Source: an uncultured bacterium (lineage in GTDB: Bacteria; Desulfobacterota; DSM-4660; Desulfatiglandales; JALVMZ01). Taken from it: a stretch of 64,000 nucleotides of DNA. Below, piece by piece: positions 6,548-44,495 of the stretch. The position numbers and the translations under genes were made by a program. Below the pieces are notes generated by a model. That model was given only the letters and a program-made list of their open reading frames with translations, was not told the origin of the DNA and made no database searches. Numbering within the stretch: position 1 is the first letter of the stretch; each line of letters starts with the position of its first letter. Location: NCBI GenBank assembly GCA_965613025.1, contig CBFDUE010000001.1:80591-144590 (forward strand), given 5' to 3'.

Positions 6548-7543
6548 CTATATCTTTCCTATCAATTCCCTTATTCCAAAGATAGCTCTTTCCATTGATA
6601 TCTCCATATTCCTACGCTGATCCATATCCCTTTGAAACTGATCAAGCAATCTTATCATAGAAATAATATCATCCACTGAAACGGTATCTGAAAACCTGTT
6701 AAGGGTATGAAAAAGATCGGAATTTATCAACATATTATCTTCACATCCAAGCCTATATAACATCATATCCCTCAGAAAACATCTCCATATTGTGATCATA
6801 TCATTTAATTCCAGATCATCCCCTTTCCTGCTCTTCTTAGAAAGATCTTCTATCAACCTGAATATCTCCCTAAGAGAGCATTCTTTTAGATCAAACAATA
6901 TCCTTAAAAACCTCTCCCTCTTCTTAGAGATTCCTCTTTCTATAAGATCAAGGGCATCTCTTATACTCCCCTGAGAAATGCGAGAAATAAAGGTTGCATC
7001 AGATTCTGATACTCCTTTCCCTATCAGATAACTCTTAATTGAATCTTCGGATATATCACTCAGATATACACACTGTGCTCTGGAAACAATAGTTGGAAGC
7101 AACATCTCCTTTTGCTGACATATAAGTATAAATAGGTTGTATGGGGAAGGTTCTTCTAAGGTCTTTAAGAATGCATTGGATGCCTCTTCTGTAAGGGACT
7201 CTGCCTCTTCCACTATCACTGTGCGAAATCTCCCCTCTAAAGGTGGATATGATAGAGTGGATGAAAGCTCCCTTATCTGTTGAATCCTAAGACTCTTTTC
7301 CACAGGTCCCATATGTATCACATCAGGGAAAACCCCCTCTTCTATCTTCATGCAGTTAGAACACCTACCACACACATCTCCCATGCCTTCCTTACAATTT
7401 AGCGCCTTTGAAAACCACAAGGCCACTTCCTTTCTTCCCACACCTCTCTTTCCCACAAAGAGATAGAAATGGGATAACCTCCCTTTTTTCATAGCAGCCT
7501 TTAAAAATCCAAGGGCCTTTTTCTGAAATGCCGTAAATTCCAT
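6548..7543 (-). CDS. holB: DNA polymerase III delta-prime subunit
   Basis: 331 aa. AAA+ clamp-loader features: LFVGKRGVGRK, zinc module CGRCSNCMKIEEG and TIVSRAQ (SRC-like). Confidence 0.85.
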   Translation of the reverse strand: MEFTAFQKKALGFLKAAMKKGRLSHFYLFVGKRGVGRKEVALWFSKALNCKEGMGDVCGRCSNCMKIEEGVFPDVIHMGPVEKSLRIQQIRELSSTLSYPPLEGRFRTVIVEEAESLTEEASNAFLKTLEEPSPYNLFILICQQKEMLLPTIVSRAQCVYLSDISEDSIKSYLIGKGVSESDATFISRISQGSIRDALDLIERGISKKRERFLRILFDLKECSLREIFRLIEDLSKKSRKGDDLELNDMITIWRCFLRDMMLYRLGCEDNMLINSDLFHTLNRFSDTVSVDDIISMIRLLDQFQRDMDQRRNMEISMERAIFGIRELIGKI

Positions 7544-7563
7544 ATCTGTCTTTTTTATCCCTA

Positions 7564-7718
7564 TTGAGACCTTTGCATGACCCCTTTTTACACTGGGGGT
7601 TAAACCCCCCTCCAGGTCGGATGACCCTCTGGGTCGGAGACCAGACCCCCAAAAATTAACTTAAAATAACCCATAATTACAGCTTTTTTATGAGAGCTTT
7701 GAAAAATTCAAAGCTCTC
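7564..7718 (-). mobile_element. MITE-like modular repeat, copy 1 (modules A-B-C(2 units)-D)
   Basis: 27-nt palindrome GAGAGCTTTGAAAAATTCAAAGCTCTC at 7692-7718. The other end is TTGAGACCTTTGCATGACCCC. It fills almost the whole HD-GYP/holB spacer and abuts the HD-GYP stop codon. No clear flanking direct repeat. Confidence 0.7.
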
Positions 7719-9343
7719 TAATCAAGAAGATCTGAAAAATCCTCTCTATCTATCTGAGATTCAGAAAGATATCTCTTGGCATAGTCTAAGTAAATCTTTT
7801 CCTTTAAAAATAGGTCAAATAGATCTCTATCAATGTAATTATCCTGTACCATATTGTGAAGTATCTTTAAAGAGGTAGATAACTTCATTGCCTCCTTATA
7901 AGGTCTGTCCTTGGCAGAGAGAGCCTCAAATACATCTGCAAGGGCAATAATTCGGGATTGAAGGGGAAGTTGGTCTGCCTTAAGTCCATTGGGATAGCCA
8001 GAGCCATCTAACCTTTCATGATGGGTTGAGGCATAAAATGGCACGCCCTTTATCTTTTTAGGAAAAGGCAACTGAGATAGCATCTTATAGGTTACAACCA
8101 CATGATTATTTATTATCTCCCTCTCTTTATCTGTAAGCGTTCCCCTTCTCACTGAAAGCCTTTCCAATTCTTCATCGCTTATAAGGGGCTGTATATTGCC
8201 CCCGATCTCTATCTTCCGCTTTGCAATATCTCTCAGCCTATTTAGCTCCTCATCCTTTAAGAAATCTCTACCCCTATTGACTTTCTTAAGAAACTCAAAT
8301 TCCTCATCCATCTCCCCCTCTATCCTTCTAAGCTCCTCTTCATCTTTGGGATCGGATGAAGATCTGAATCCCATCTCATATTGTCTCTTTACTAACTCAT
8401 ATCTGAGCTTTAGTAACTCTATCTTATCCCAGATTCCTTCAAGCTTTGTCCTTTTGTCCACCACATACTCAGGGGTTACAATCTTTCCCACATCATGAAG
8501 CCATGCACTCAGATACAACTCTTTTAGCTGATCTTCACTAAACTCTACCTCTTTAAAGGGCCCCTCTTTTGCCTCATTTATCTTTTCTGCAATCATCTGT
8601 GTAAGTGCTGAAACCCTGCCTATATGGCCGGCAGTATAAGGGGATTTTTCATCAATTGCTGAAGCAATGGTCTTAATGAAGGCATAGAATAGATCTTCCA
8701 GCTCTTTTATGAGCTGTCTGTTGGTTAGGGCAACTGCAGCCTGGGAGGCAAGGGCCTGCCCCATCCTTTCAGATTCATCTGAAAATGGGATCACTTCACC
8801 AGTATCTGGATCCATTGCATTTATTAGCTGTATGACCCCTATAATATCATCTTCATGATTCCTGAGGGGGATGACTAACATGGATTTAGACCTATAACCT
8901 GTCTTCTTATCAAATTCCTTAGTCCCTCTAAAATCAAACTGCTCTGTATTATAGACATCTTCAATATTTACACTCTCACCCTTTATGGCAACATATGCAC
9001 TCACATTGGAAAAATTAGGACTTCCGTCAGCATGCCTTAGTTTCACAGGCTCCCATGTAATCTTTCCACTCTTTCCCCCCATCCTCACATTAAGGGTGTC
9101 ATTCTGAACAATACTGAAATTTAATACCATATTCTCTTCATCCAAAAGATATAGGGTGCCTCCATCTGAATTGGTCATATTTCTGGCCTCTTGGACTATC
9201 ATCTCAAGCAGTCTGTCTATATCCTTTTCCTTAGATAGGGCAAGACAGATATCTGAAAATGCAGATACCCTTTGAACAAGATTATCTACATAGTCTCTTA
9301 GATATTCCGGTATCCCCTCCTTACCTTGACTCTCTAATCCCAT
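7718..9343 (-). CDS. GAF-domain HD-GYP phosphohydrolase (putative c-di-GMP phosphodiesterase)
   Basis: 541 aa. N-terminal GAF-like region. HD-GYP motifs: WLHDVGKIVTP and HHERLDGSGYPNGL. Confidence 0.85.
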   Translation of the reverse strand: MGLESQGKEGIPEYLRDYVDNLVQRVSAFSDICLALSKEKDIDRLLEMIVQEARNMTNSDGGTLYLLDEENMVLNFSIVQNDTLNVRMGGKSGKITWEPVKLRHADGSPNFSNVSAYVAIKGESVNIEDVYNTEQFDFRGTKEFDKKTGYRSKSMLVIPLRNHEDDIIGVIQLINAMDPDTGEVIPFSDESERMGQALASQAAVALTNRQLIKELEDLFYAFIKTIASAIDEKSPYTAGHIGRVSALTQMIAEKINEAKEGPFKEVEFSEDQLKELYLSAWLHDVGKIVTPEYVVDKRTKLEGIWDKIELLKLRYELVKRQYEMGFRSSSDPKDEEELRRIEGEMDEEFEFLKKVNRGRDFLKDEELNRLRDIAKRKIEIGGNIQPLISDEELERLSVRRGTLTDKEREIINNHVVVTYKMLSQLPFPKKIKGVPFYASTHHERLDGSGYPNGLKADQLPLQSRIIALADVFEALSAKDRPYKEAMKLSTSLKILHNMVQDNYIDRDLFDLFLKEKIYLDYAKRYLSESQIDREDFSDLLD

Positions 9344-9351
9344 ATTCTCCT

Positions 9352-9657
9352 CTACGTCTCTTTTAAATCTTCATCCTCTTCTCTGTTAAATCTCTTAAGC
9401 TCCCTCTTAAGCCTCTCAATCTCCTTCTTAAGCCATGGTATCACCTCATCTCTCATCTTCTTATCCATCTTCTGCTCCATCTCTTTAAGCTCTTTAAGCA
9501 GATCTTGGAGCTCTTCTTTAAGATCTCTAAATTGATCCTCAAATCTTATACTCTTTGGAAAAGAAGATATATCTTTGGAATAACAATTGCTTATGTTAAA
9601 GGAGACAAAAAGTGATATTAAAATTAAATAGATTAAAAATCTCTTAATTTTACACAT
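9352..9657 (-). CDS. Small secreted coiled-coil protein, unknown function
   Basis: The track ORF starts at GTG 9663; I prefer ATG 9657 (MCKIKRFLIYLILISLFVSFNISNCYS signal peptide). The rest is K/E-rich heptad-like sequence. The stop lies 8 nt before the HD-GYP start. Confidence 0.5.
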   Translation of the reverse strand: MCKIKRFLIYLILISLFVSFNISNCYSKDISSFPKSIRFEDQFRDLKEELQDLLKELKEMEQKMDKKMRDEVIPWLKKEIERLKRELKRFNREEDEDLKET

Positions 9658-9682
9658 ATTCACATTAACTTATAAATCTTTT

Positions 9683-9801
9683 GAGACCTTTGCATAACCC
9701 CTTTACGCTGGGGGTTACACCCCCAGACCCCCCAAAAATTAACTTAAAATAACCCATAATTACAGCTTTTTTATGAGAGCTTTGAAAAATTCAAAGCTCT
9801 C
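9683..9801 (-). mobile_element. MITE-like modular repeat, copy 2 (A-B-D, no C units)
   Basis: Palindrome at 9775-9801. Flush 11-nt direct repeats ATAAATCTTTT flank it at 9672-9682 and 9802-9812 (candidate target-site duplication). Confidence 0.8.
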
Positions 9802-10328
9802 ATAAATCTTTTAATATCCTCTGGCCTAAAATCAAGATAATTAAAGATCTTCTCTTCTACCTTTCTACATAACATAAAATTCTTCTCAATCCTATCACAT
9901 ATCGCAGGATCATCCTTACCGTATTTGTCAAGGATATAGCTTAGCCTTTCATCCAGGCTCACCACCTCCTCTCCATTTACCCTCTTATCTGCATAATAGA
10001 CTATCTGCACCTCATCTATATCATCATAAGGGTCAAATCTATTAAGGACAATGTGATATCTGACTATCTGAGAGATCTTATCCAGGCCATGCTCTTTGCA
10101 GATCCGAGCACCTTCCTCTGCATGATCCTTTTCAGTTCCAATACATCGGTGTTTTGCAATATCATGAAGCAGTGCCCCGGCGCTGACAAGCGGAAATGAA
10201 AGCCCAAAGTTGAGATTTTTTAATATAAATGTGGCAATCCTTTCTACCACAATTGAATGCCTCATGATATGCAAAGGCATATCATGATATTTCATCAACC
10301 AGATGCACTCTTCAAATGATGGTATCAT
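9771..10328 (-). CDS. HD-domain metal-dependent phosphohydrolase; the last 10 codons and the stop are encoded by repeat copy 2
   Basis: HD motif LLHDIAKH. I prefer ATG 10328 (MIPSFEECIWLMKYH...) over the track's TTG 10364. The C-terminus ...DIKRF-MRALNFSKLS* reads through the 27-nt palindrome. Confidence 0.7.
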   Translation of the reverse strand: MIPSFEECIWLMKYHDMPLHIMRHSIVVERIATFILKNLNFGLSFPLVSAGALLHDIAKHRCIGTEKDHAEEGARICKEHGLDKISQIVRYHIVLNRFDPYDDIDEVQIVYYADKRVNGEEVVSLDERLSYILDKYGKDDPAICDRIEKNFMLCRKVEEKIFNYLDFRPEDIKRFMRALNFSKLS

Positions 10329-10370
10329 GGCAATTAAGATACATTTCTTGAAACTGAGGTTCAATAATTA

Positions 10371-11402
10371 TTAATGATCTTTTTTGCTGTCATTGCTTGG
10401 AAGCTTTATCTTTCCAATAAACATAAGTGATCCCAGATCAGATAAAAGTGATCCCACTGTCTCTATTGCCTTTCTGAATCTGGTATTCCTGATATATCTC
10501 CACCTCTTATCAATGGAAAAGTGCTCAGGGAGAGATAGGTTATGAAAGATGGGCAGTTTTCCTCTTTTAATATCAGAGGAGTGGACCCGAATCCAGCCAT
10601 CTCCAAAAGGAATAACATCCATTACATACTGAATAAAGACCTGCCCCATATCAAATACCCTTCCTATTACCCTGGATGCCCCCCTTCCCAAGGAACCAAT
10701 TGTGGAATCTGGAACCACCTCTAAGAGATTCCAGATTCCCAGCACAAGATCCTTTGTAATATGAACAATACTATTGCATACTCCCTGAAACAGATCATAA
10801 AATAGTGCTTTTTTAAGCTTTCTAAAAGGATAGACAATCCTATCCCATATCCCCTTGATCTTTTTAGAGGAGAATATACCAAAGCTTATTCCATCACCCA
10901 GATCCTTAAAAAAATCCCTGATAGATGCAAAAAGCCCCCTTCTCCTTGATCTGTGTATATTCCCATCCCTGCCCTTCCAGTAAAATTCTGCACCTTGAAT
11001 AAGATCCTTAAGTAAATTTTTAAAATTGAGATACGCATCAGCCAAATCCTTCCAGATTCTTTTACCAAATGTCTTCTGATCCGTATCTTCCATCTCTACC
11101 CTATCTGAGTTAAAGTAATAATCATCTCCTCCTGGTGCACTCAATAGCTGATCTTCCATATAGACCTTTAGACCATAAAGAGGAAGATTGATATTCCCTA
11201 TATGGGAAATTTCTTCCTCTCTTCTGATATACAAATCATAATAACCTATCAGGGTGGGAACCCTTTTGACAGTATAATCTTTTGATGTATCTGAGCCTAT
11301 GGTAGAGTTCAGAATATCTGTAAAAGAATCCTTCTTTACTCTCACTGAGACTCTACCTTCAACCTGGGACTTGATATGAGGATTTAATTCATATATCTTC
11401 AT
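10371..11402 (-). CDS. Hypothetical protein, no recognisable domain (orphan)
   Basis: 343-aa ORF, first gene of the minus-strand string. It has no motif I can place and no clear TM helix or signal peptide. Confidence 0.5.
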   Translation of the reverse strand: MKIYELNPHIKSQVEGRVSVRVKKDSFTDILNSTIGSDTSKDYTVKRVPTLIGYYDLYIRREEEISHIGNINLPLYGLKVYMEDQLLSAPGGDDYYFNSDRVEMEDTDQKTFGKRIWKDLADAYLNFKNLLKDLIQGAEFYWKGRDGNIHRSRRRGLFASIRDFFKDLGDGISFGIFSSKKIKGIWDRIVYPFRKLKKALFYDLFQGVCNSIVHITKDLVLGIWNLLEVVPDSTIGSLGRGASRVIGRVFDMGQVFIQYVMDVIPFGDGWIRVHSSDIKRGKLPIFHNLSLPEHFSIDKRWRYIRNTRFRKAIETVGSLLSDLGSLMFIGKIKLPSNDSKKDH

Positions 11403-11435
11403 GATAAAACAATTTAAAGCAAATTAAGTGCCAAA

Positions 11436-12164
11436 ATGAGATTTCTCTCTGCCTTTATTTCATTCATAATCTTTTTCACATATATAACCCCCTGTTTAGG
11501 AACGTCTTTCCACTATTTAAGGGAAAAGATGGTAAGGGAACAGCTTGAGTTCCCTTTAGATGGAAGAACTCCTATCCGTGATAGACGCGTTCTTTGGGCA
11601 ATGAAGACTGTTCCACGTCACCTCTTTGTGCGAAAAGAGGATATGTTACGTGCCTATGAAGATCATCCTCTTCCCATAGGATGGGGACAGACCATATCCC
11701 AGCCCTATATAGTGGCCCTTATGACAGAGATGCTAAAGCTTGCTCCCCATCACAGAGTGCTTGAAATCGGGACAGGCTCAGGCTATCAGGCAGCAGTACT
11801 TTCTTTGCTTTGCAAAGAGGTGTATAGTATAGAGATAATTGAATCCCTTGCTAAAGAGGCAATCAAAAGGCTTCAAAGATTGGGGTATAAAAATATCAGA
11901 GTAAAGATAGGTGATGGATATTATGGCTGGCCAGAATATGCCCCTTTTGATAGGATCATTTTAACCTGTGCCTTTCCCAAGGTGCCTCCTCCACTTATAA
12001 AACAGTTAAAAAGAGGAGGGTTACTCTGCATGCCCTTAGGGCCAAGATATGGTATCCAGTATCTTACAATTTTATTTAAGATGAAGGATGGAAGTTGCAG
12101 GATTAAAAAGGAAACTCCTGTAAGATTTGTCCCCATGATAAGGAAAAAGAATTTATCTGAATAA
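11436..12164 (+). CDS. pcm: Protein-L-isoaspartate O-methyltransferase with N-terminal signal/TM segment
   Basis: 242 aa. PIGWGQTISQPYIVALMTE and the SAM motif VLEIGTGSGYQAAVLS. Confidence 0.9.
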   Translation: MRFLSAFISFIIFFTYITPCLGTSFHYLREKMVREQLEFPLDGRTPIRDRRVLWAMKTVPRHLFVRKEDMLRAYEDHPLPIGWGQTISQPYIVALMTEMLKLAPHHRVLEIGTGSGYQAAVLSLLCKEVYSIEIIESLAKEAIKRLQRLGYKNIRVKIGDGYYGWPEYAPFDRIILTCAFPKVPPPLIKQLKRGGLLCMPLGPRYGIQYLTILFKMKDGSCRIKKETPVRFVPMIRKKNLSE

Positions 12165-12188
12165 TTTTACAGCCTTATTAATATTAGC

Positions 12189-12216
12189 TTGACATTAAAA
12201 GTTTAAGAAAAATAAT
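12189..12216 (+). promoter_or_regulatory. Candidate sigma70-type promoter upstream of repeat copy 3 and ffh
   Basis: TTGACA (12189-12194), 16-nt spacer, AATAAT (12211-12216). If used, repeat copy 3 lies in the ffh 5' leader. Confidence 0.3.
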
Positions 12217-12233
12217 TTAAAAATTTTAGATTT

Positions 12234-12386
12234 GAGAGCTTTGAAAAATTCAAAGCTCTCAGAAAAGAGTTGTAATTATGGGTTATTTTAAGTAAATCTT
12301 TGGGGGTCTGGTCTCCGACCCAGAGGGTCATCCGACCTGGAGGGGGGTGTAACCCCCAGTGTAAAAGGGGGTTATGCAAAGCTCTC
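12234..12386 (+). mobile_element. MITE-like modular repeat, copy 3 (A-B-C(2 units)-D)
   Basis: Palindrome at 12234-12260. C units at 12311-12343. Ends ...GGGGGTTATGCAAAGCTCTC at 12386. Only a weak AGAT flank repeat. Confidence 0.7.
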
Positions 12387-12410
12387 AGATCTATAAAATA
12401 CGGAAGGAAG

Positions 12411-13727
12411 ATGTTTGAGAGGCTAAGTGATAGGTTAAATCGCACATTTAAGAAATTAAAAGGCCAAGGGAAACTCACTGAAAAGAATATCCAGGATGCT
12501 CTGAAGGAGGTTCGGATTGCCCTTCTTGAGGCAGATGTCCACTATAGGATTGTAAAGAGATTTATAGGAAAGATAAAAGAGAGGGCAATTGGGGAAGAGG
12601 TCTTAGATAGTCTAACCCCTACTCAACAGGTCATAAAGATAGTAAATGAAGAGCTTATAAGATTAATGGGTGGGGAAAGGGAGGATCTGAGATTATTGGG
12701 AAGACCCCCCTTTAAGATAATGCTTGTGGGACTTCAGGGATCAGGAAAGACTACCACAGCAGGTAAATTAGCACTCTTTTTGAGAAAGAGGGGAAGGAAT
12801 CCCATGCTTGTTCCAGCGGATATCTATAGACCTGCAGCAATTGACCAATTAAAGAAGCTTGCTGATAACATCTCCATGCCCATATATCTTCCTGAAGATG
12901 GTATGAAACCTGAAGATATATGTGAAAAGGCGATTTCCATGACCTCCCATTTTGGCTCAGATACGGTCATAATAGACACTGCAGGTAGATTACATATTGA
13001 TCAGGAGCTGATGGAGGAGCTGGTCAGGATTAAACAGAGAATTGATCCTACAGAGATACTGCTTATTGCGGATGCAATGACAGGGCAAGATGCGGTAAAT
13101 GTGGCAAGGGAATTCAATGAAAGGCTAAATATCACAGGGGTCATTCTTACCAAAATGGATGGAGATGCAAGGGGTGGGGCCGCCCTTTCCATAAGGGAGG
13201 TAACCCAAACCCCAATCAAATTTATAGGCACAGGTGAAAAGTTAAGTGCATTAGAGCCATTTCATCCAGATAGAATGGCATCCAGAATACTTGGCATGGG
13301 TGATGTGCTATCCCTGATTGAGAAGGCTCAGGAAGAATTTGATGAAAAGATGGCAATAAGATTTCAAGAAAAGTTAAAGAGAAGGGAGTTTGATCTGGAA
13401 GATTTCAGGGACCAGATACGGCAGATGAAGAAGCTGGGGTCTTTACAGCAGATACTCAGTCTGATTCCTGGACTTGGCCGATTGAAGCAATTGAAGCATA
13501 TGGAAATTGATGATAGAGAGCTTATAAAGATAGAGGCCATTATAAATTCCATGACAAAGGAGGAGAGAAGAAACTATAAGATCATAAATGCCAGTAGAAA
13601 AAAGAGGATCGCAAAGGGAAGTGGCACAAGTGTTCAGGATGTCAACAGATTGTTAAAGAATTTTGCAAAGACAAAGAGAATGATGGAGGAATTTACAAGA
13701 AAAGGGTTGCCAAGTATCTTCAATTAA
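12411..13727 (+). CDS. ffh: Signal recognition particle protein Ffh
   Basis: Start moved to ATG 12411 (MFERLSDRLNRTFKKL) with GGAAGGAAG upstream. The 37 extra codons of the track ORF (TTG 12300) are read-through of the repeat. GTPase motifs GLQGSGKTTT, DTAGR and TKMDGD, plus a Met-rich M domain. Confidence 0.95.
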   Translation: MFERLSDRLNRTFKKLKGQGKLTEKNIQDALKEVRIALLEADVHYRIVKRFIGKIKERAIGEEVLDSLTPTQQVIKIVNEELIRLMGGEREDLRLLGRPPFKIMLVGLQGSGKTTTAGKLALFLRKRGRNPMLVPADIYRPAAIDQLKKLADNISMPIYLPEDGMKPEDICEKAISMTSHFGSDTVIIDTAGRLHIDQELMEELVRIKQRIDPTEILLIADAMTGQDAVNVAREFNERLNITGVILTKMDGDARGGAALSIREVTQTPIKFIGTGEKLSALEPFHPDRMASRILGMGDVLSLIEKAQEEFDEKMAIRFQEKLKRREFDLEDFRDQIRQMKKLGSLQQILSLIPGLGRLKQLKHMEIDDRELIKIEAIINSMTKEERRNYKIINASRKKRIAKGSGTSVQDVNRLLKNFAKTKRMMEEFTRKGLPSIFN

Positions 13728-13761
13728 TTAATACTAATTAAGGAGGTAGAGAAAAGAGGGA

Positions 13762-14004
13762 ATGGCTGTAAGAATAAGATTAACTCGCATGGGCGCTAAA
13801 AAGAGACCGTTTTATAGGATAATAGCAGCGAATTCAGAGTCTCCAAGAGACGGAAAATTTTTAGAGATCTTAGGATATTATGACCCTAAAAAAGATCCTC
13901 CTGAAATTAAGGTAGATGCACAAAAGGTAAAATATTGGCTTGAAAAAGGCGCAAAACTTACAGAAGCAGCAGGGGCAATACTAAAAAGAGAGGGTATAAT
14001 TTAG
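13762..14004 (+). CDS. rpsP: 30S ribosomal protein S16
   Basis: 80 aa, MAVRIRLTRMGAKKRPFYRI... Confidence 0.95.
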   Translation: MAVRIRLTRMGAKKRPFYRIIAANSESPRDGKFLEILGYYDPKKDPPEIKVDAQKVKYWLEKGAKLTEAAGAILKREGII

Positions 14005-14060
14005 ATCAGTTAATTTTAGATGTGGTGTTGAAGTGAATAAAAATAGGTAGGAGGAGGAAT

Positions 14061-14297
14061 ATGGAGATGAAAGATTTAGTGGCTTATATGGCAAAGGCTT
14101 TAGTGGATCATCCGGAACAGGTAAAGGTCACTGAAATTCAAGGGGAGCAGACATCAGTAATTGAGCTCAAAGTGGCCAAAGAGGATCTGGGAAAGATCAT
14201 TGGAAAGCAGGGAAGGACCGCACGGGCTATGAGGACTATTCTGAGTGCAGCCTCTACCAAGATCAATAAGAGGTGTGTCTTAGAGATTATTGAATAG
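14061..14297 (+). CDS. KH-domain RNA-binding protein (YlqC/KhpA-like)
   Basis: 78 aa. [18 protein letters not shown] matches the KH GXXG motif. Occupies the conserved slot between rpsP and rimM. Confidence 0.85.
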
Positions 14298-14835
14298 TCC
14301 TAAACAGCCATCCCCTGAGCGGCTGGTCTTAATAGCTAAGATAACCCGTCCCCATGGTCTGGATGGGTGTGTAAGGATTCAGTCGTTTGCCTGTTCAGAG
14401 GATTCCTTTTTATCCTCAGGAAGTGTCTATATAAGACCAGAGGGAAAGGATTATTATTTTGAATACAGGGTCTTAGATATCAGACCCCATAAAAATGTCT
14501 ATCTTCTTAGACTTGAAGGGGTAGGTTCTCGCACTCAGGCTGAATCGCTCAGAGGTGCTTCCATCTTTGTGGATAAGAGGAATCTTAAAAAGGAAGAAGG
14601 GGAATATTTCTGGTTTGAGATCCTGGGTATGAAGGTCTATCTTCAGGATGGAAAGTATATAGGAACAGTAAAGAATATAATGGAAACGGGCAGCAACGAT
14701 GTATTTGTTATAAGAAGAGGGGAAAAGGAGATCCTTATTCCTGCAATTGAAGATGTAATAAGGAATATAGATCTAAAAGAGGGGAAGATAATTGTAGAAC
14801 TCTTAGAGGGAATGGGCGAGATATATGAGATTTGA
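14290..14835 (+). CDS. rimM: 16S rRNA processing protein RimM
   Basis: 181 aa from a TTG start (start uncertain). [16 protein letters not shown] and a C-terminal PRC barrel. Conserved synteny. Confidence 0.85.
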
Positions 14836-15565
14836 TATATTAACCCTATTTCCAGAAATCTTTTCAGGCCTTATCAGTAGTGGTGTATTGGGAAGGGCTG
14901 TTAAAAAAGGGATCTTGGAGATCAATCTTATAAATATCAGGGATTTTGGCTGTGGGCCTCATAAGATAGTAGATGATAGGCCCTTTGGTGGTGGAGCAGG
15001 GATGGTGATGAAGGTATCGCCCATATATAAGGCACTTAAATCCATAGAGCTGCTTAGTGGTAGATCAGTTGTTATAATGCTAAGCCCTCAGGGAGAGCTG
15101 TTTGATCAGGATATGGCAAGAGAATTGCTTTCATTTAAGCAGATTGTTTTAATATGTGGTAGATATGAAGGAGTGGATGAAAGGGTGAGATTATATTATG
15201 TGGACAGGGAGATATCCATAGGTGACTATATACTGAGTGGGGGTGAATTGGCCGCAATGGTGATAATAGATGTGATTGGAAGGCTGATTCCTGGGGTATT
15301 ACACAGCAAAGATTCTCTGAGTGAAGAGACATTTAGCAATGGCCTTTTAAAATATCCCCAATATACACGTCCCAGAGAATTTGATGGTAAAAAGGTGCCT
15401 GAAGTGCTTCTATCGGGAGATCATGAAAGGATAAAGAGATGGAGGAGGAAGGAGTCCTTAAAGAGGACACTGCTTAGAAGACCTGAATTACTTAAAAAGG
15501 CTCTATTAAGTGATCAAGATAAAAAGGTATTAGAAGAGTTAAAAAGGGAGCTAAATATATCGTGA
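14825..15565 (+). CDS. trmD: tRNA (guanine37-N1)-methyltransferase
   Basis: 246 aa. [23 protein letters not shown] and the SPOUT knot region YILSGGELAAMV. Confidence 0.95.
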   Translation: MRFDILTLFPEIFSGLISSGVLGRAVKKGILEINLINIRDFGCGPHKIVDDRPFGGGAGMVMKVSPIYKALKSIELLSGRSVVIMLSPQGELFDQDMARELLSFKQIVLICGRYEGVDERVRLYYVDREISIGDYILSGGELAAMVIIDVIGRLIPGVLHSKDSLSEETFSNGLLKYPQYTRPREFDGKKVPEVLLSGDHERIKRWRRKESLKRTLLRRPELLKKALLSDQDKKVLEELKRELNIS

Positions 15566-15568
15566 CAA

Positions 15569-15792
15569 GGGCTTTGAATTTTTCAAAGCTCTCATAAAAA
15601 AGCTGTAAATGGAATCTGTCATTGCGAGGGTCTTAAAAGACCCGAAGCAATCTATAAAAGGTATGAGATTGCTTCGCTTCGCTCGCAATGACAGGGGTCT
15701 GGTCTCCGACCTGGAGGGTCATCCGACCCGGAAGGTCTCCGACCCGGAGGGGGGTGTAACCCCCAGTGTAAAAAAGTTATGCAAAAGTCTCG
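15569..15792 (+). mobile_element. MITE-like modular repeat, copy 4 (degenerate A, truncated B with nested foreign repeat, C(3 units), D)
   Basis: Flanked by 8-nt direct repeats CGTGACAA at 15561-15568 and 15793-15800. C units at 15702-15750. The ATG at 15779 lies inside module D. Confidence 0.8.
15611..15693 (+). repeat. Nested palindromic repeat of a second family (TGTCATTGCGAG...CTCGCAATGACA)
   Basis: Outer 12-bp arms at 15617-15628 and 15682-15693. Inner 9-bp arms GAAGCAATC/GATTGCTTC at 15644-15652 and 15667-15675. Mini-hairpin GGTCTT-AA-AAGACC. It replaces about 26 nt of module B, and one frame translates to ...LLRFARNDR. Confidence 0.7.
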
Positions 15793-15793
15793 C

Positions 15794-16357
15794 GTGACAA
15801 ATCTATTTATAGCCCTTCTTCACTATCCTGTATACAATAAGAATTATATAGAGACCGCATCTGCCATTACAACACTGGATATACATGATATTGCACGGGT
15901 TGCAAGGACCTACGGAGTAAGAAGATATTTCATTGTCACACCCCTAAGGGATCAAAGGGAGTTGGCATATAAGGTCATCAAACACTGGACAGATGGATAT
16001 GGATCGGTGTATAATCCTTTAAGAAAAGAGGCACTAAAGCTGGTATCCATTAAATCATCCCTTGACGAGGTCATTGAAGATATAGAGAGGGTGGAGGGCA
16101 AAAGGCCCATTTTAATTGCAACGGATGCCAGAAGATATAATGATAAAAAGATGATTAGTTATGAAGGATTGAGGAAACTCATAATGCAGGAGAGATTAAT
16201 TCTTATCCTATTTGGAACCGCATGGGGTCTAACAGAGGAATTTATAAACAAGATGGATATGTTATTGGAGCCAATTGAAGGTTATACAGATTACAATCAC
16301 CTATCTGTTAGATCAGCGGCTGCTATTATATTAGATAGGCTATTGGGAAAAAATTGA
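15794..16357 (+). CDS. SPOUT-type RNA methyltransferase (Methyltrn_RNA_4/DUF2168-like) of the trmD-rplS locus
   Basis: [18 protein letters not shown]...[16 protein letters not shown] matches my memory of this family. GTG 15794 is the reconstructed ancestral start; the track ORF starts at the repeat-borne ATG 15779 (5 extra codons, MQKSR). Confidence 0.6.
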
Positions 16358-16370
16358 GGAGGATTGGATC

Positions 16371-16712
16371 ATGGATATCATAAGAAAGATTGAAAAAGAG
16401 CAGATGAGGCTTGATATTCCGGATTTCAAGGCAGGAGATACAGTAAGGGTGCATGTTAGGATTAAAGAAGGAGACAAGGAAAGGATTCAGGTATTTGAAG
16501 GCCTGGTTATAAGGAAACGGAGAGGAGGCACTGGAGCCACATTTACGGTAAGGCGTGTCTCTTATGGAATAGGTGTTGAGAGGATATTTCCCCTTCATTC
16601 CCCAGTTATTGAAAAGATAGAGGTGGTGAGCCGAGGAAAGGTAAGAAGGGCTCGTCTCTATTATATCAGAAATCTAAGGGGAAAGGCTGCCAGAATTAAG
16701 GAAAAGAGATAG
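16371..16712 (+). CDS. rplS: 50S ribosomal protein L19
   Basis: 113 aa. [30 protein letters not shown]. Confidence 0.95.
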
Positions 16713-16725
16713 TCTAACGGAATAG

Positions 16726-17334
16726 ATGACCTCTGATAATCTTCTCTTTGAAAAGGAGGCCTTAAATAAGGGTTATAGGCATATTGCCGGGGTGGATGAG
16801 GCGGGAAGGGGGCCCCTTGCAGGCCCTGTGGTTGCTGCAGCTGTCATACTTCCTGAGCTGAAGGAATATCCACGGATAAGGGATTCTAAAAAGATCTCCT
16901 CTTCTGAGAGGGAGAGGCTCTTTTCTCTTATTGTCAATGAGGCCATAGCAATAGGAGTTGGTGTGGTTTCAAAGGAATTTATTGAAAGGGAAAATATCCT
17001 AATTGCAAGCTTAGAGGCAATGAGAAGGGCTATATATTCTTTAGAAATTGTGCCCGATTTCATACTGGTTGATGGAATATATCCCATTCCCATATCCATT
17101 GAGCAGAGATGTATTAAAAAAGGAGATCAAAAGAGCCAATCCATCTCTGCTGCTTCAATTATTGCAAAGGTTTACAGAGACAGGATCATGGATGCCTATG
17201 ATGCAGAGTTTCCTCAATATGGATTTTCTAAAAACAAAGGGTATCCCACCAGAATGCATATTGAGGCACTCAAGATATACGGAGCCTCCCCTATACATAG
17301 GAAAACATTTAAGAGGGTCTGGTCTCAGAAATGA
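16726..17334 (+). CDS. rnhB: Ribonuclease HII
   Basis: 202 aa. GVDEAGRGPLAGPVVAAAV and the DSKK motif. Confidence 0.9.
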   Translation: MTSDNLLFEKEALNKGYRHIAGVDEAGRGPLAGPVVAAAVILPELKEYPRIRDSKKISSSERERLFSLIVNEAIAIGVGVVSKEFIERENILIASLEAMRRAIYSLEIVPDFILVDGIYPIPISIEQRCIKKGDQKSQSISAASIIAKVYRDRIMDAYDAEFPQYGFSKNKGYPTRMHIEALKIYGASPIHRKTFKRVWSQK

Positions 17335-42908: not shown

Positions 42909-42972
42909 GAGAGTTTCGAATTTTTCAGAGGGGTATAACCTCCAGTGTAAAAAGGGGTTATGTAAAGCTCTC
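42909..42972 (+). mobile_element. MITE-like repeat, copy 5 (short form: degenerate A fused to D)
   Basis: GAGAGTTTCGAATTTTTCAGAG-GGGTATAACCTCCAGTGTAAAAAGGGGTTATGTAAAGCTCTC. Flush 7-nt direct repeats TATAGGA at 42902-42908 and 42973-42979 (9 nt, CTATAGGAG, if the end bases are included). Confidence 0.7.
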
Positions 42973-43062
42973 TATAGGAGTATTTGAAGAGGGTTAATTA
43001 AATTAAGAGATTAGAATTTTTTATTAGTTAAATTTTAAAATCTAAACTTACGGGAGGGTGAT

Positions 43063-44378: not shown

Positions 44379-44495
44379 GAGAGCTTTGAGTTTTTCAAAG
44401 CTCTCAGAAAAAAGGTAATTATGGGTTATTTAAAATTAATTCTGGGGGTCTGGGGGTGTAACCCCCAGTGTAAAAAGGGGTTATGCAAAGCTCTC
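44379..44495 (+). mobile_element. MITE-like repeat, copy 6 (A-B-D, no C units)
   Basis: Palindrome GAGAGCTTTGAGTTTTTCAAAGCTCTC at 44379-44405. Ends ...GGGGTTATGCAAAGCTCTC. 5-nt flank repeats ACTCT at 44374-44378 and 44496-44500. Confidence 0.75.

Follow-up and report, generated by a model that had tools for sequence, protein, structure and literature searches.

Insertion at the trmD/Tm1570 junction

In the window, as the whole 64-kb stretch of DNA analyzed here is called, the trmD gene and the downstream Tm1570 gene are separated by one copy (copy 4) of a repeat family. This arrangement is very probably explained by a non-autonomous, MITE-like element, bounded by GAGAGCTTTG and CAAAGCTCTC, that inserted into a 4-nt GTGA overlap of the two genes and, as we infer, uncoupled their translation. 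Staggered cleavage and repair duplicated a 6- to 8-bp target, CGTGAC(AA), in which the trmD stop (TGA) and the Tm1570 start (GTG) are both contained. Because the duplication spans both signals, trmD keeps its stop on the left and Tm1570 keeps its start on the right, with 232 bp between them. The explanation is supported by the confinement of an 8-mer to the two borders of the element, by three naturally occurring empty alleles that match the prediction exactly, by a Tm1570 family N terminus that falls at the GTG, and by the common occurrence of NTGA overlaps and trmD/Tm1570 fusions in relatives. Transposition as the cause is supported by the many copies of the element and by their locus-specific flush duplications. 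The insertion of a MITE with target duplication is textbook biology, and the event is real but ordinary in kind. The features of the locus are as follows.

14825 to 15565, + strand: trmD, tRNA m1G37 methyltransferase (ORF list; Pfam PF01746, E 6.6e-62)
15544 to 15550, + strand: AAGGGAG, ancestral Shine-Dalgarno sequence of Tm1570 in the 3' end of trmD, now left of the insertion, in a context identical to that of the empty alleles
15561 to 15568, + strand: left copy of the target-site duplication, CGTGACAA, with the unambiguous core CGTGAC at 15561 to 15566
15562 to 15597, + strand: vestigial start, an 11-codon ORF, (V)TRALNFSKLS*, that has the old GTG and the old Shine-Dalgarno sequence and runs through hairpin A to the TAA at 15595 to 15597
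15793 to 15800, + strand: right copy of the target-site duplication, CGTGACAA, assigned from the sequence
15794 to 16357, + strand: Tm1570-family SPOUT RNA methyltransferase (PF09936, Methyltrn_RNA_4), 187 aa from GTG 15794 (Pfam E 2e-76; homologue N termini; empty alleles called from the same GTG)
16371 to 16712, + strand: rplS, ribosomal protein L19, the next gene of the operon (ORF; PF01245 in orthologous loci)

The original prediction had placed an 8-mer on both sides of the element, with the trmD stop in the left copy and an in-frame GTG in the right copy, and these coordinates were confirmed. CGTGACAA had two matches in the window, counted on both strands (15561-15568 and 15793-15800), compared with 0.19 expected from shuffles. 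The 3' end of trmD reads ...AAT ATA TCG TGA, with the stop TGA (15563-15565) within the left 8-mer, and the GTG within the right 8-mer (15794-15796) is in frame with the Tm1570 gene ending at 16357. In the filled allele, the element between the 8-mers measures 226 nt, and the trmD and Tm1570 ORFs, 232 bp apart, are both intact.

The description of the 8-mers as flush with the element needed one refinement. Compared with the canonical end GAGAGCTTTG, the last two A's of the left 8-mer are the first two positions of the element, and compared with the canonical right end, ...CAAAGSTCTC, one G (15792) lies between this end and the 8-mer. The variant left end AAGAGC also occurs at four other loci (L001, L089, L128, and L137). 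The unambiguous duplication of copy 4 is CGTGAC, which at 6 bp has the commonest length of the family, and the match continues to 8 bases. Whichever border reading, 6 or 8 bp, is taken, the same junction is reconstructed.

The element has slightly ragged ends, and the last two A's of the 8-mer can be read as element sequence, which might suggest that the 8-mer is a coincidence or a part of the element, that the repeat was always intergenic, and that the genes never overlapped. However, no other copy in the window has CGTGACAA, the flush repeats differ from copy to copy, and the existence of the empty alleles described below already refutes this reading, to which we give practically no credence.

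The PF09936 match to Tm1570 scored 256 bits against a cut-off of 22.6 and covered profile positions 1-182 of 182, with profile position 1 corresponding to the third residue after GTG 15794. The PF09936 homologues are mostly 184-189 aa long and start with MRLYIGLxHYPVYNK. In the alignment this Met falls one codon past GTG 15794, and no further start codon lies in the interval, indicating that the N terminus of the SPOUT family lies where the insertion scheme had put it and not elsewhere. An alternative, 192-aa form of Tm1570 corresponds to the ORF 15779 to 16357, which begins five codons upstream, in frame, at the ATG at 15779-15781. Look-ups of the window Tm1570 protein in its 192-aa, V-start, and M-start forms returned no exact record.

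Empty and filled alleles

Empty alleles were located by exact-protein look-ups of the window rplS and trmD in ENA assemblies. Three element-free contigs were found, L215/L210 (ENA ERZ27227318) and L219 and L204 (both ENA ERZ27227317), whose flanking genes share 98.2-99.5% identity with those of the window. All are short metagenome contigs (1.6-6.5 kb, from k=141 assemblies), analyzed as contig sequences, which weighs against the explanation. The empty junction reads ...AAATATATCGTGACAAATCTATTT... (also given as GGGAGCTAAATATATCGTGACAAATCTATTTATAGCCC, AAAAAGGGAGCTAAATATATCGTGACAAATCTATTTATAGCCC, and ATATCGTGACAAATC). In these alleles (...TCGTGACA...) the stop and start overlap by 4 nt, with AAGGGAG about 10 nt upstream inside trmD, and the gene calls of L210/L215 comprise trmD and a 187-aa Tm1570, likewise overlapped by 4 nt. 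The filled and empty alleles are distinguished by a clean 232-bp indel. These contigs show that the uninterrupted GTGA junction, which had been predicted for related genomes, still exists in the same population. The overlap that removal of the element was expected to restore is present in them as reconstructed, and no element-free contig carried a different junction sequence.

The filled allele was found in the window, in L203/L212 (ERZ27227314), in L205 and L218 (JGI 3300014886), and in an about 94%-identical lineage (L001/L142 and L002). In the 94% lineage, the borders and variant ends are those of the window and module B' is present, but module C is lacking. A degenerate empty-junction pattern gave no match in JGI metagenome contigs, and a PF09936-alignment scan of genome contigs gave no relative above 60% identity and no empty site.

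The allele pair also carries a warning for annotation, as gene callers assigned three N termini to this one gene depending on the allele: the ATG in the filled allele (192 aa), the GTG in the empty allele (187 aa), and a 249-aa form in L212. At L203 2285-3034 and L212 1738-2487, an extra G in module D (AAAAAAGGTTATG) fuses the element ORF to Tm1570. The 249-aa protein of L212 is an annotation artifact, because a 1-nt indel joins the element ORF to the gene.

These alleles form a natural pair in one uncultured population, in which the same two genes either overlap by 4 nt or are separated by 232 structured nucleotides with the Shine-Dalgarno sequence left behind. The pair is a ready-made test of the contribution of the overlap to expression and fitness. 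It also shows how, with target-site duplication, overlapping genes can take an insertion without harm to their ORFs.

To place the junction in its family context, 80 loci from other genomes, all ≤60% identical, were collected, and about 77 with a co-oriented trmD upstream were scored. Among these, 4-nt NTGA overlaps occurred at eight loci (three of them TTGACA), 1-nt overlaps at four, and in-frame fusions at nine, and spacers of 1-265 nt were found at about 30. The fusions, of the double-knotted TrmD-Tm1570 type, were those of L009, L026, L036, L044, L056, L067, L074, L076, and L077. The trmD/Tm1570 junction is thus very labile among distant relatives. Four arrangements of TrmD and Tm1570 have been described, namely separate, adjacent, overlapping, and fused (PMC11187310), and the range of junctions in the relatives agrees with these four. 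The empty alleles belong to the overlapping type, whereas the window represents the opposite route, an overlapping pair pushed apart by a mobile element with its ORFs undamaged.

Architecture of the element

The window holds five full copies and one partial copy of the repeat family. The copies, with the modules of copy 4, are as follows.

About 7566 to 7718, - strand: copy 1
About 9683 to 9801, - strand: copy 2
12234 to 12386, + strand: copy at the ffh-upstream site
15567 to 15792, + strand: copy 4, 226 nt, comprising hairpin A, module B', module C, and module D
15567 to 15593, + strand: module A of copy 4, the 27-nt palindromic hairpin AAGGGCTTTGAATTTTTCAAAGCTCTC (repeat family, terminal inverted repeat matches, and family alignment)
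15609 to 15693, + strand: module B' of copy 4, a long hairpin with the arms CTGTCATTGCGAGG and GCTCGCAATGACAG at 15616-15629 and 15681-15694
15701 to 15749, + strand: module C of copy 4, three GGTCYCCGACCYGGAGG-like units, optional in the repeat family
15750 to 15792, + strand: module D of copy 4, from the repeat family, with a GGGGG-TGTAA-CCCCC hairpin, an A-rich stretch, the ATG at 15779-15781, and the right terminal inverted repeat ...GCAAAAGTCTC(G)
About 42929 to 42973: short partial copy
44379 to 44495, + strand: full copy

The terminal inverted repeats, GAGAGCTTTG...CAAAGCTCTC, are 10-12 nt long, and the five full-length copies of the window have them, as do 93 metagenome copies. The left repeat is GAGAGCTTTG(A/C)A, and the right repeat is its reverse complement. 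Module A in its general form is a perfect 27-nt hairpin, GAGAGCTTTGAA-WWW-TTCAAAGCTCTC, whose outer arm is the left terminal inverted repeat. It is followed by module B (TTATGGGTTATTTTAAG...) or by the alternative long-hairpin module B' (CTGTCATTGCGAGG...GCTCGCAATGACAG). Module C is generally built of GGTCTCCGACCYGGAGG-like units, and module D has the general form GGGGGTGTAACCCCCAGTGTAAAAGGGGGTTATGCAAAGCTCTC. Module B' was also present in about 20 other copies; the idea that it is a second element nested in copy 4 alone was rejected, since B' is a common alternative module. In canonical copies, an SD-like GGGGG adjoins the ATG of module D (GTAAAAGGGGGTTATG), and this tract is absent from copy 4 (GTAAAAAAGTTATG).

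A 62-aa ORF inside copy 4 had no Pfam match. The Rfam search of region 7000-17000 gave sub-threshold chance matches only, and no similarity of the element to plasmids or phages was found.

At the ffh-upstream site, the window copy has module B, while the orthologous copies in L001 and L149 have module B', indicating that copies swap modules through gene conversion or recombination. Just upstream of the window copy, at 12189-12216, is a near-consensus sigma-70-like site, TTGACA-16-AATAAT, and the element would therefore form the 5' untranslated region of ffh.

Mobility and insertion preference of the family

Metagenome contigs were scanned with the D-module core, which gave more than 120 loci, and 93 distinct full copies of 98-350 bp were extracted. 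Flush direct repeats of ≥5 bp were found at 41.9% of the 93 copies, compared with 0.35% when left and right flanks were re-paired randomly. The duplications had a mode of 6 bp and a range of 4-11 bp, differed in sequence at each locus, and were 79% A+T; several apparent zero-length duplications were duplications offset by 1-2 nt.

In region 9771-9812 (minus strand), copy 2 lies in an HD-domain gene (9771 to 10364, minus strand), two codons ahead of its stop, and is flanked by a perfect 11-bp duplication, ATAAATCTTTT. The HD-domain protein now ends ...KRF-MRALNFSKLS*, read from hairpin A, in place of ...KRFIS*. The copy upstream of ffh is flanked by AGATTT/AGATCT in the window and by a perfect AGATCT duplication in another strain (L149). 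At copy 1, the stop TAG (7718-7720) of a GAF/HD-domain gene (7718 to 9343, - strand) consists of TA from the flank and the first G of the element, and a holB-like gene starts 22 nt past the D end of this copy.

The orientation of the 93 copies was strongly biased: both neighboring genes were co-oriented with the element in 47 cases and both anti-oriented in 4. In the favored orientation, the hairpin-A end points toward the stop of the co-oriented upstream gene and the D end toward the start of the co-oriented downstream gene; in 52 of 67 cases, no more than about 36 nt separated this start from the D end. About one-quarter of the co-oriented copies abut the final codons of the upstream gene or extend into them. 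This bias suggests selection or targeting at the transcript level.

The family is a non-autonomous, MITE-like modular repeat. It is short and non-coding, with terminal inverted repeats, locus-specific target duplications, filled and empty alleles, and many copies. The variable duplication length, 4-11 bp, is unusual for a single transposase and speaks against the proposed insertion, as does the failure to identify a transposase or an autonomous partner sharing these inverted repeats. When 669 kb of loci, in which the copies are too dense for such a search, were scanned for an autonomous IS between paired inverted repeats, only neighboring small copies were returned.

The family is very abundant in the source organism and breaks its assemblies. 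Three to five copies were seen within a few kilobases in L125 (5.7 kb), L098, L147, L084, and others, and many metagenome contigs end inside an element copy.

History of the insertion

Between the window and the 94% lineage, the element differs, by eye, at about 8 positions, which is roughly the divergence of the flanks. As the insertion is common to the 94% lineage and the divergence of element and flanks is similar, a single old insertion is the most economical reading. Two independent insertions at one hotspot, made separately in the window lineage and the 94% lineage, with the empty allele simply ancestral, would agree with the preference of the family for gene ends (about one-quarter of co-oriented copies) and with the commonness of module-B' variants in both genomes. 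However, the two insertions have identical borders, the same unusual left end (AAGRGC, not GAGAGC), and the same extra right G, and the element has diverged roughly as much as its flanks. CGTGAC is also untypically GC-rich compared with the 79% A+T of the family duplications. We therefore consider a second insertion at this site highly unlikely.

With a single old insertion, empty alleles inside the 98-99.5% cluster point either to precise excision or to an old empty allele that was retained and transferred by homologous recombination. The SNP pattern around the locus was mosaic, indicating that the haplotypes are recombinant and violate a single tree, and polarizing the polymorphism by flanking SNPs failed for this reason. 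It is a substantial possibility, rated a little below even, that the element is ancestral at this junction and that the empty alleles were derived by precise excision through slippage between the 8-bp repeats across the hairpins; the polymorphism would then report excision and no recent insertion, although the original insertion into the GTGA overlap would still be required. The insertion is common to lineages about 6% apart in their flanks, with the empty alleles within the 98-99.5% cluster, and strong RNA structure (dG, -119 kcal/mol; z = -8.25) is predicted for the region. Flanking 8-bp repeats favor slippage, which is known for the precise excision of IS and Tn elements. On the other hand, at least three different haplotypes (L204, L219, and L215) carry an empty allele, and with mosaic SNPs the data are explained equally well by homologous recombination that transferred an old empty allele.

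Comparison with known repeat families

The family resembles bacterial MITEs such as Correia/NEMIS of Neisseria, RUP, Nezha, and MITEAba12 in being small (here 98-350 bp) and non-coding with terminal inverted repeats, as well as in its strong secondary structure, many dispersed intergenic copies, target duplications, and presence/absence polymorphism among strains. In contrast to these MITEs, its duplication is variable (4-11 bp; mode, 6 bp) and not fixed, a partner IS was not identified, and the bias toward the sense orientation is very strong (47 versus 4). Correia/NEMIS elements have a TA target duplication and 26-bp inverted repeats, and the present family, with duplications of 4-11 bp of varied sequence and inverted repeats of 10-12 bp, is not of this type.

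Like REP/BIME (REPIN) sequences of enterobacteria and pseudomonads, the copies are mosaics of palindromic units located between presumably co-transcribed genes near stops. REP elements have no target-site duplication and are tied to RAYT transposases, whereas target duplications are clear here, and the family is not REP/REPIN.

In its construction the family also resembles BOX elements (boxA-boxB(n)-boxC), which are likewise modular, with optional internal modules of variable number, and which are co-transcribed with their neighbors, as is presumed here. BOX elements of Streptococcus pneumoniae often encode the stop of the upstream gene or an outward-reading start (PMC3049150). Comparably, copies 1 and 2 provide a stop codon together with a new C terminus, and module D provides an ATG. 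The sequences and host phyla of the two families appear unrelated, and unlike in BOX, a clean target duplication at the trmD/Tm1570 junction regenerates both native signals, so that the element does not replace them.

Translation and expression of Tm1570

The ancestral Shine-Dalgarno sequence lies about 10 nt before GTG 15562, and its duplex with the canonical anti-SD has a free energy of -8.2 kcal/mol. In the filled allele, the 22 nt upstream of ATG 15779 or of GTG 15794 gave an SD duplex of -1.0 kcal/mol each, and neither start has a Shine-Dalgarno sequence. The original prediction had the element donate a new ATG with a GGGG tract just upstream. There is indeed an in-frame ATG at 15779, but no usable SD accompanies it. 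The G tract is at 15750-15754, 24 nt away, where it forms the 5' arm of the GGGGG/CCCCC hairpin, and this part of the claim was not confirmed. The case for the element usefully donating a start to Tm1570 is weak.

Coupling by termination-reinitiation reportedly requires overlaps or very short spacers (PMC10666635 and PMC6728339), and a spacer of 232 nt should therefore abolish it. With termination-reinitiation presumably lost, the old Shine-Dalgarno sequence and GTG would drive an 11-codon decoy ORF into hairpin A. The hairpin is read in this ORF in the same frame that gives the new C terminus at copy 2. Tm1570 would be translated by SD-poor initiation, at ATG 15779 or GTG 15794, on a read-through operon transcript. 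The dN/dS ratio between the two filled lineages was 0.137 for Tm1570 and 0.126 for trmD, and Tm1570 is evidently under purifying selection and still in use. Its expression is probably lower yet, as this selection indicates, still sufficient.

The fold predicted for the 301-nt region has a dG of -119.3 kcal/mol (z = -8.25) and places the AUG and GUG on opposite arms of a small stem. A 12-bp helix is predicted between GCUGUAAAUGGA at the start of module B' (15602-15613) and UCUAUUUAUAGC in Tm1570 codons 3-7 (15802-15813). This helix may occlude the start region of Tm1570 or may be due to chance.

In 20 of the 67 co-oriented copies, the ATG of module D shared an open frame with the downstream gene, which is the one-third expected by chance, and a preferential in-frame position of this ATG was therefore rejected as functional evidence. 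A wider functional role of the family is conceivable, although we regard it as improbable. The element would be a sense-oriented, gene-boundary-seeking cassette in which hairpin A caps the upstream cistron and module D brings a GGGGG/CCCCC hairpin, an alternative CCCCC/GGGGG pairing that could mask an SD-like GGGGG, and an ATG. Such a cassette would act as a portable intercistronic unit of translation or regulation, with filled and empty alleles forming a selectable expression switch operated by insertion and precise excision.

No consensus for a sigma-70-like promoter or an intrinsic terminator was found within 15561-15800. As the essential rplS lies downstream, read-through transcription is likely. 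Judging from the sequence, transcription must cross the element to reach rplS, unless an internal promoter went undetected. The same operon of the window has further overlapped junctions, such as that between rnhB and yraN at 17331-17334.
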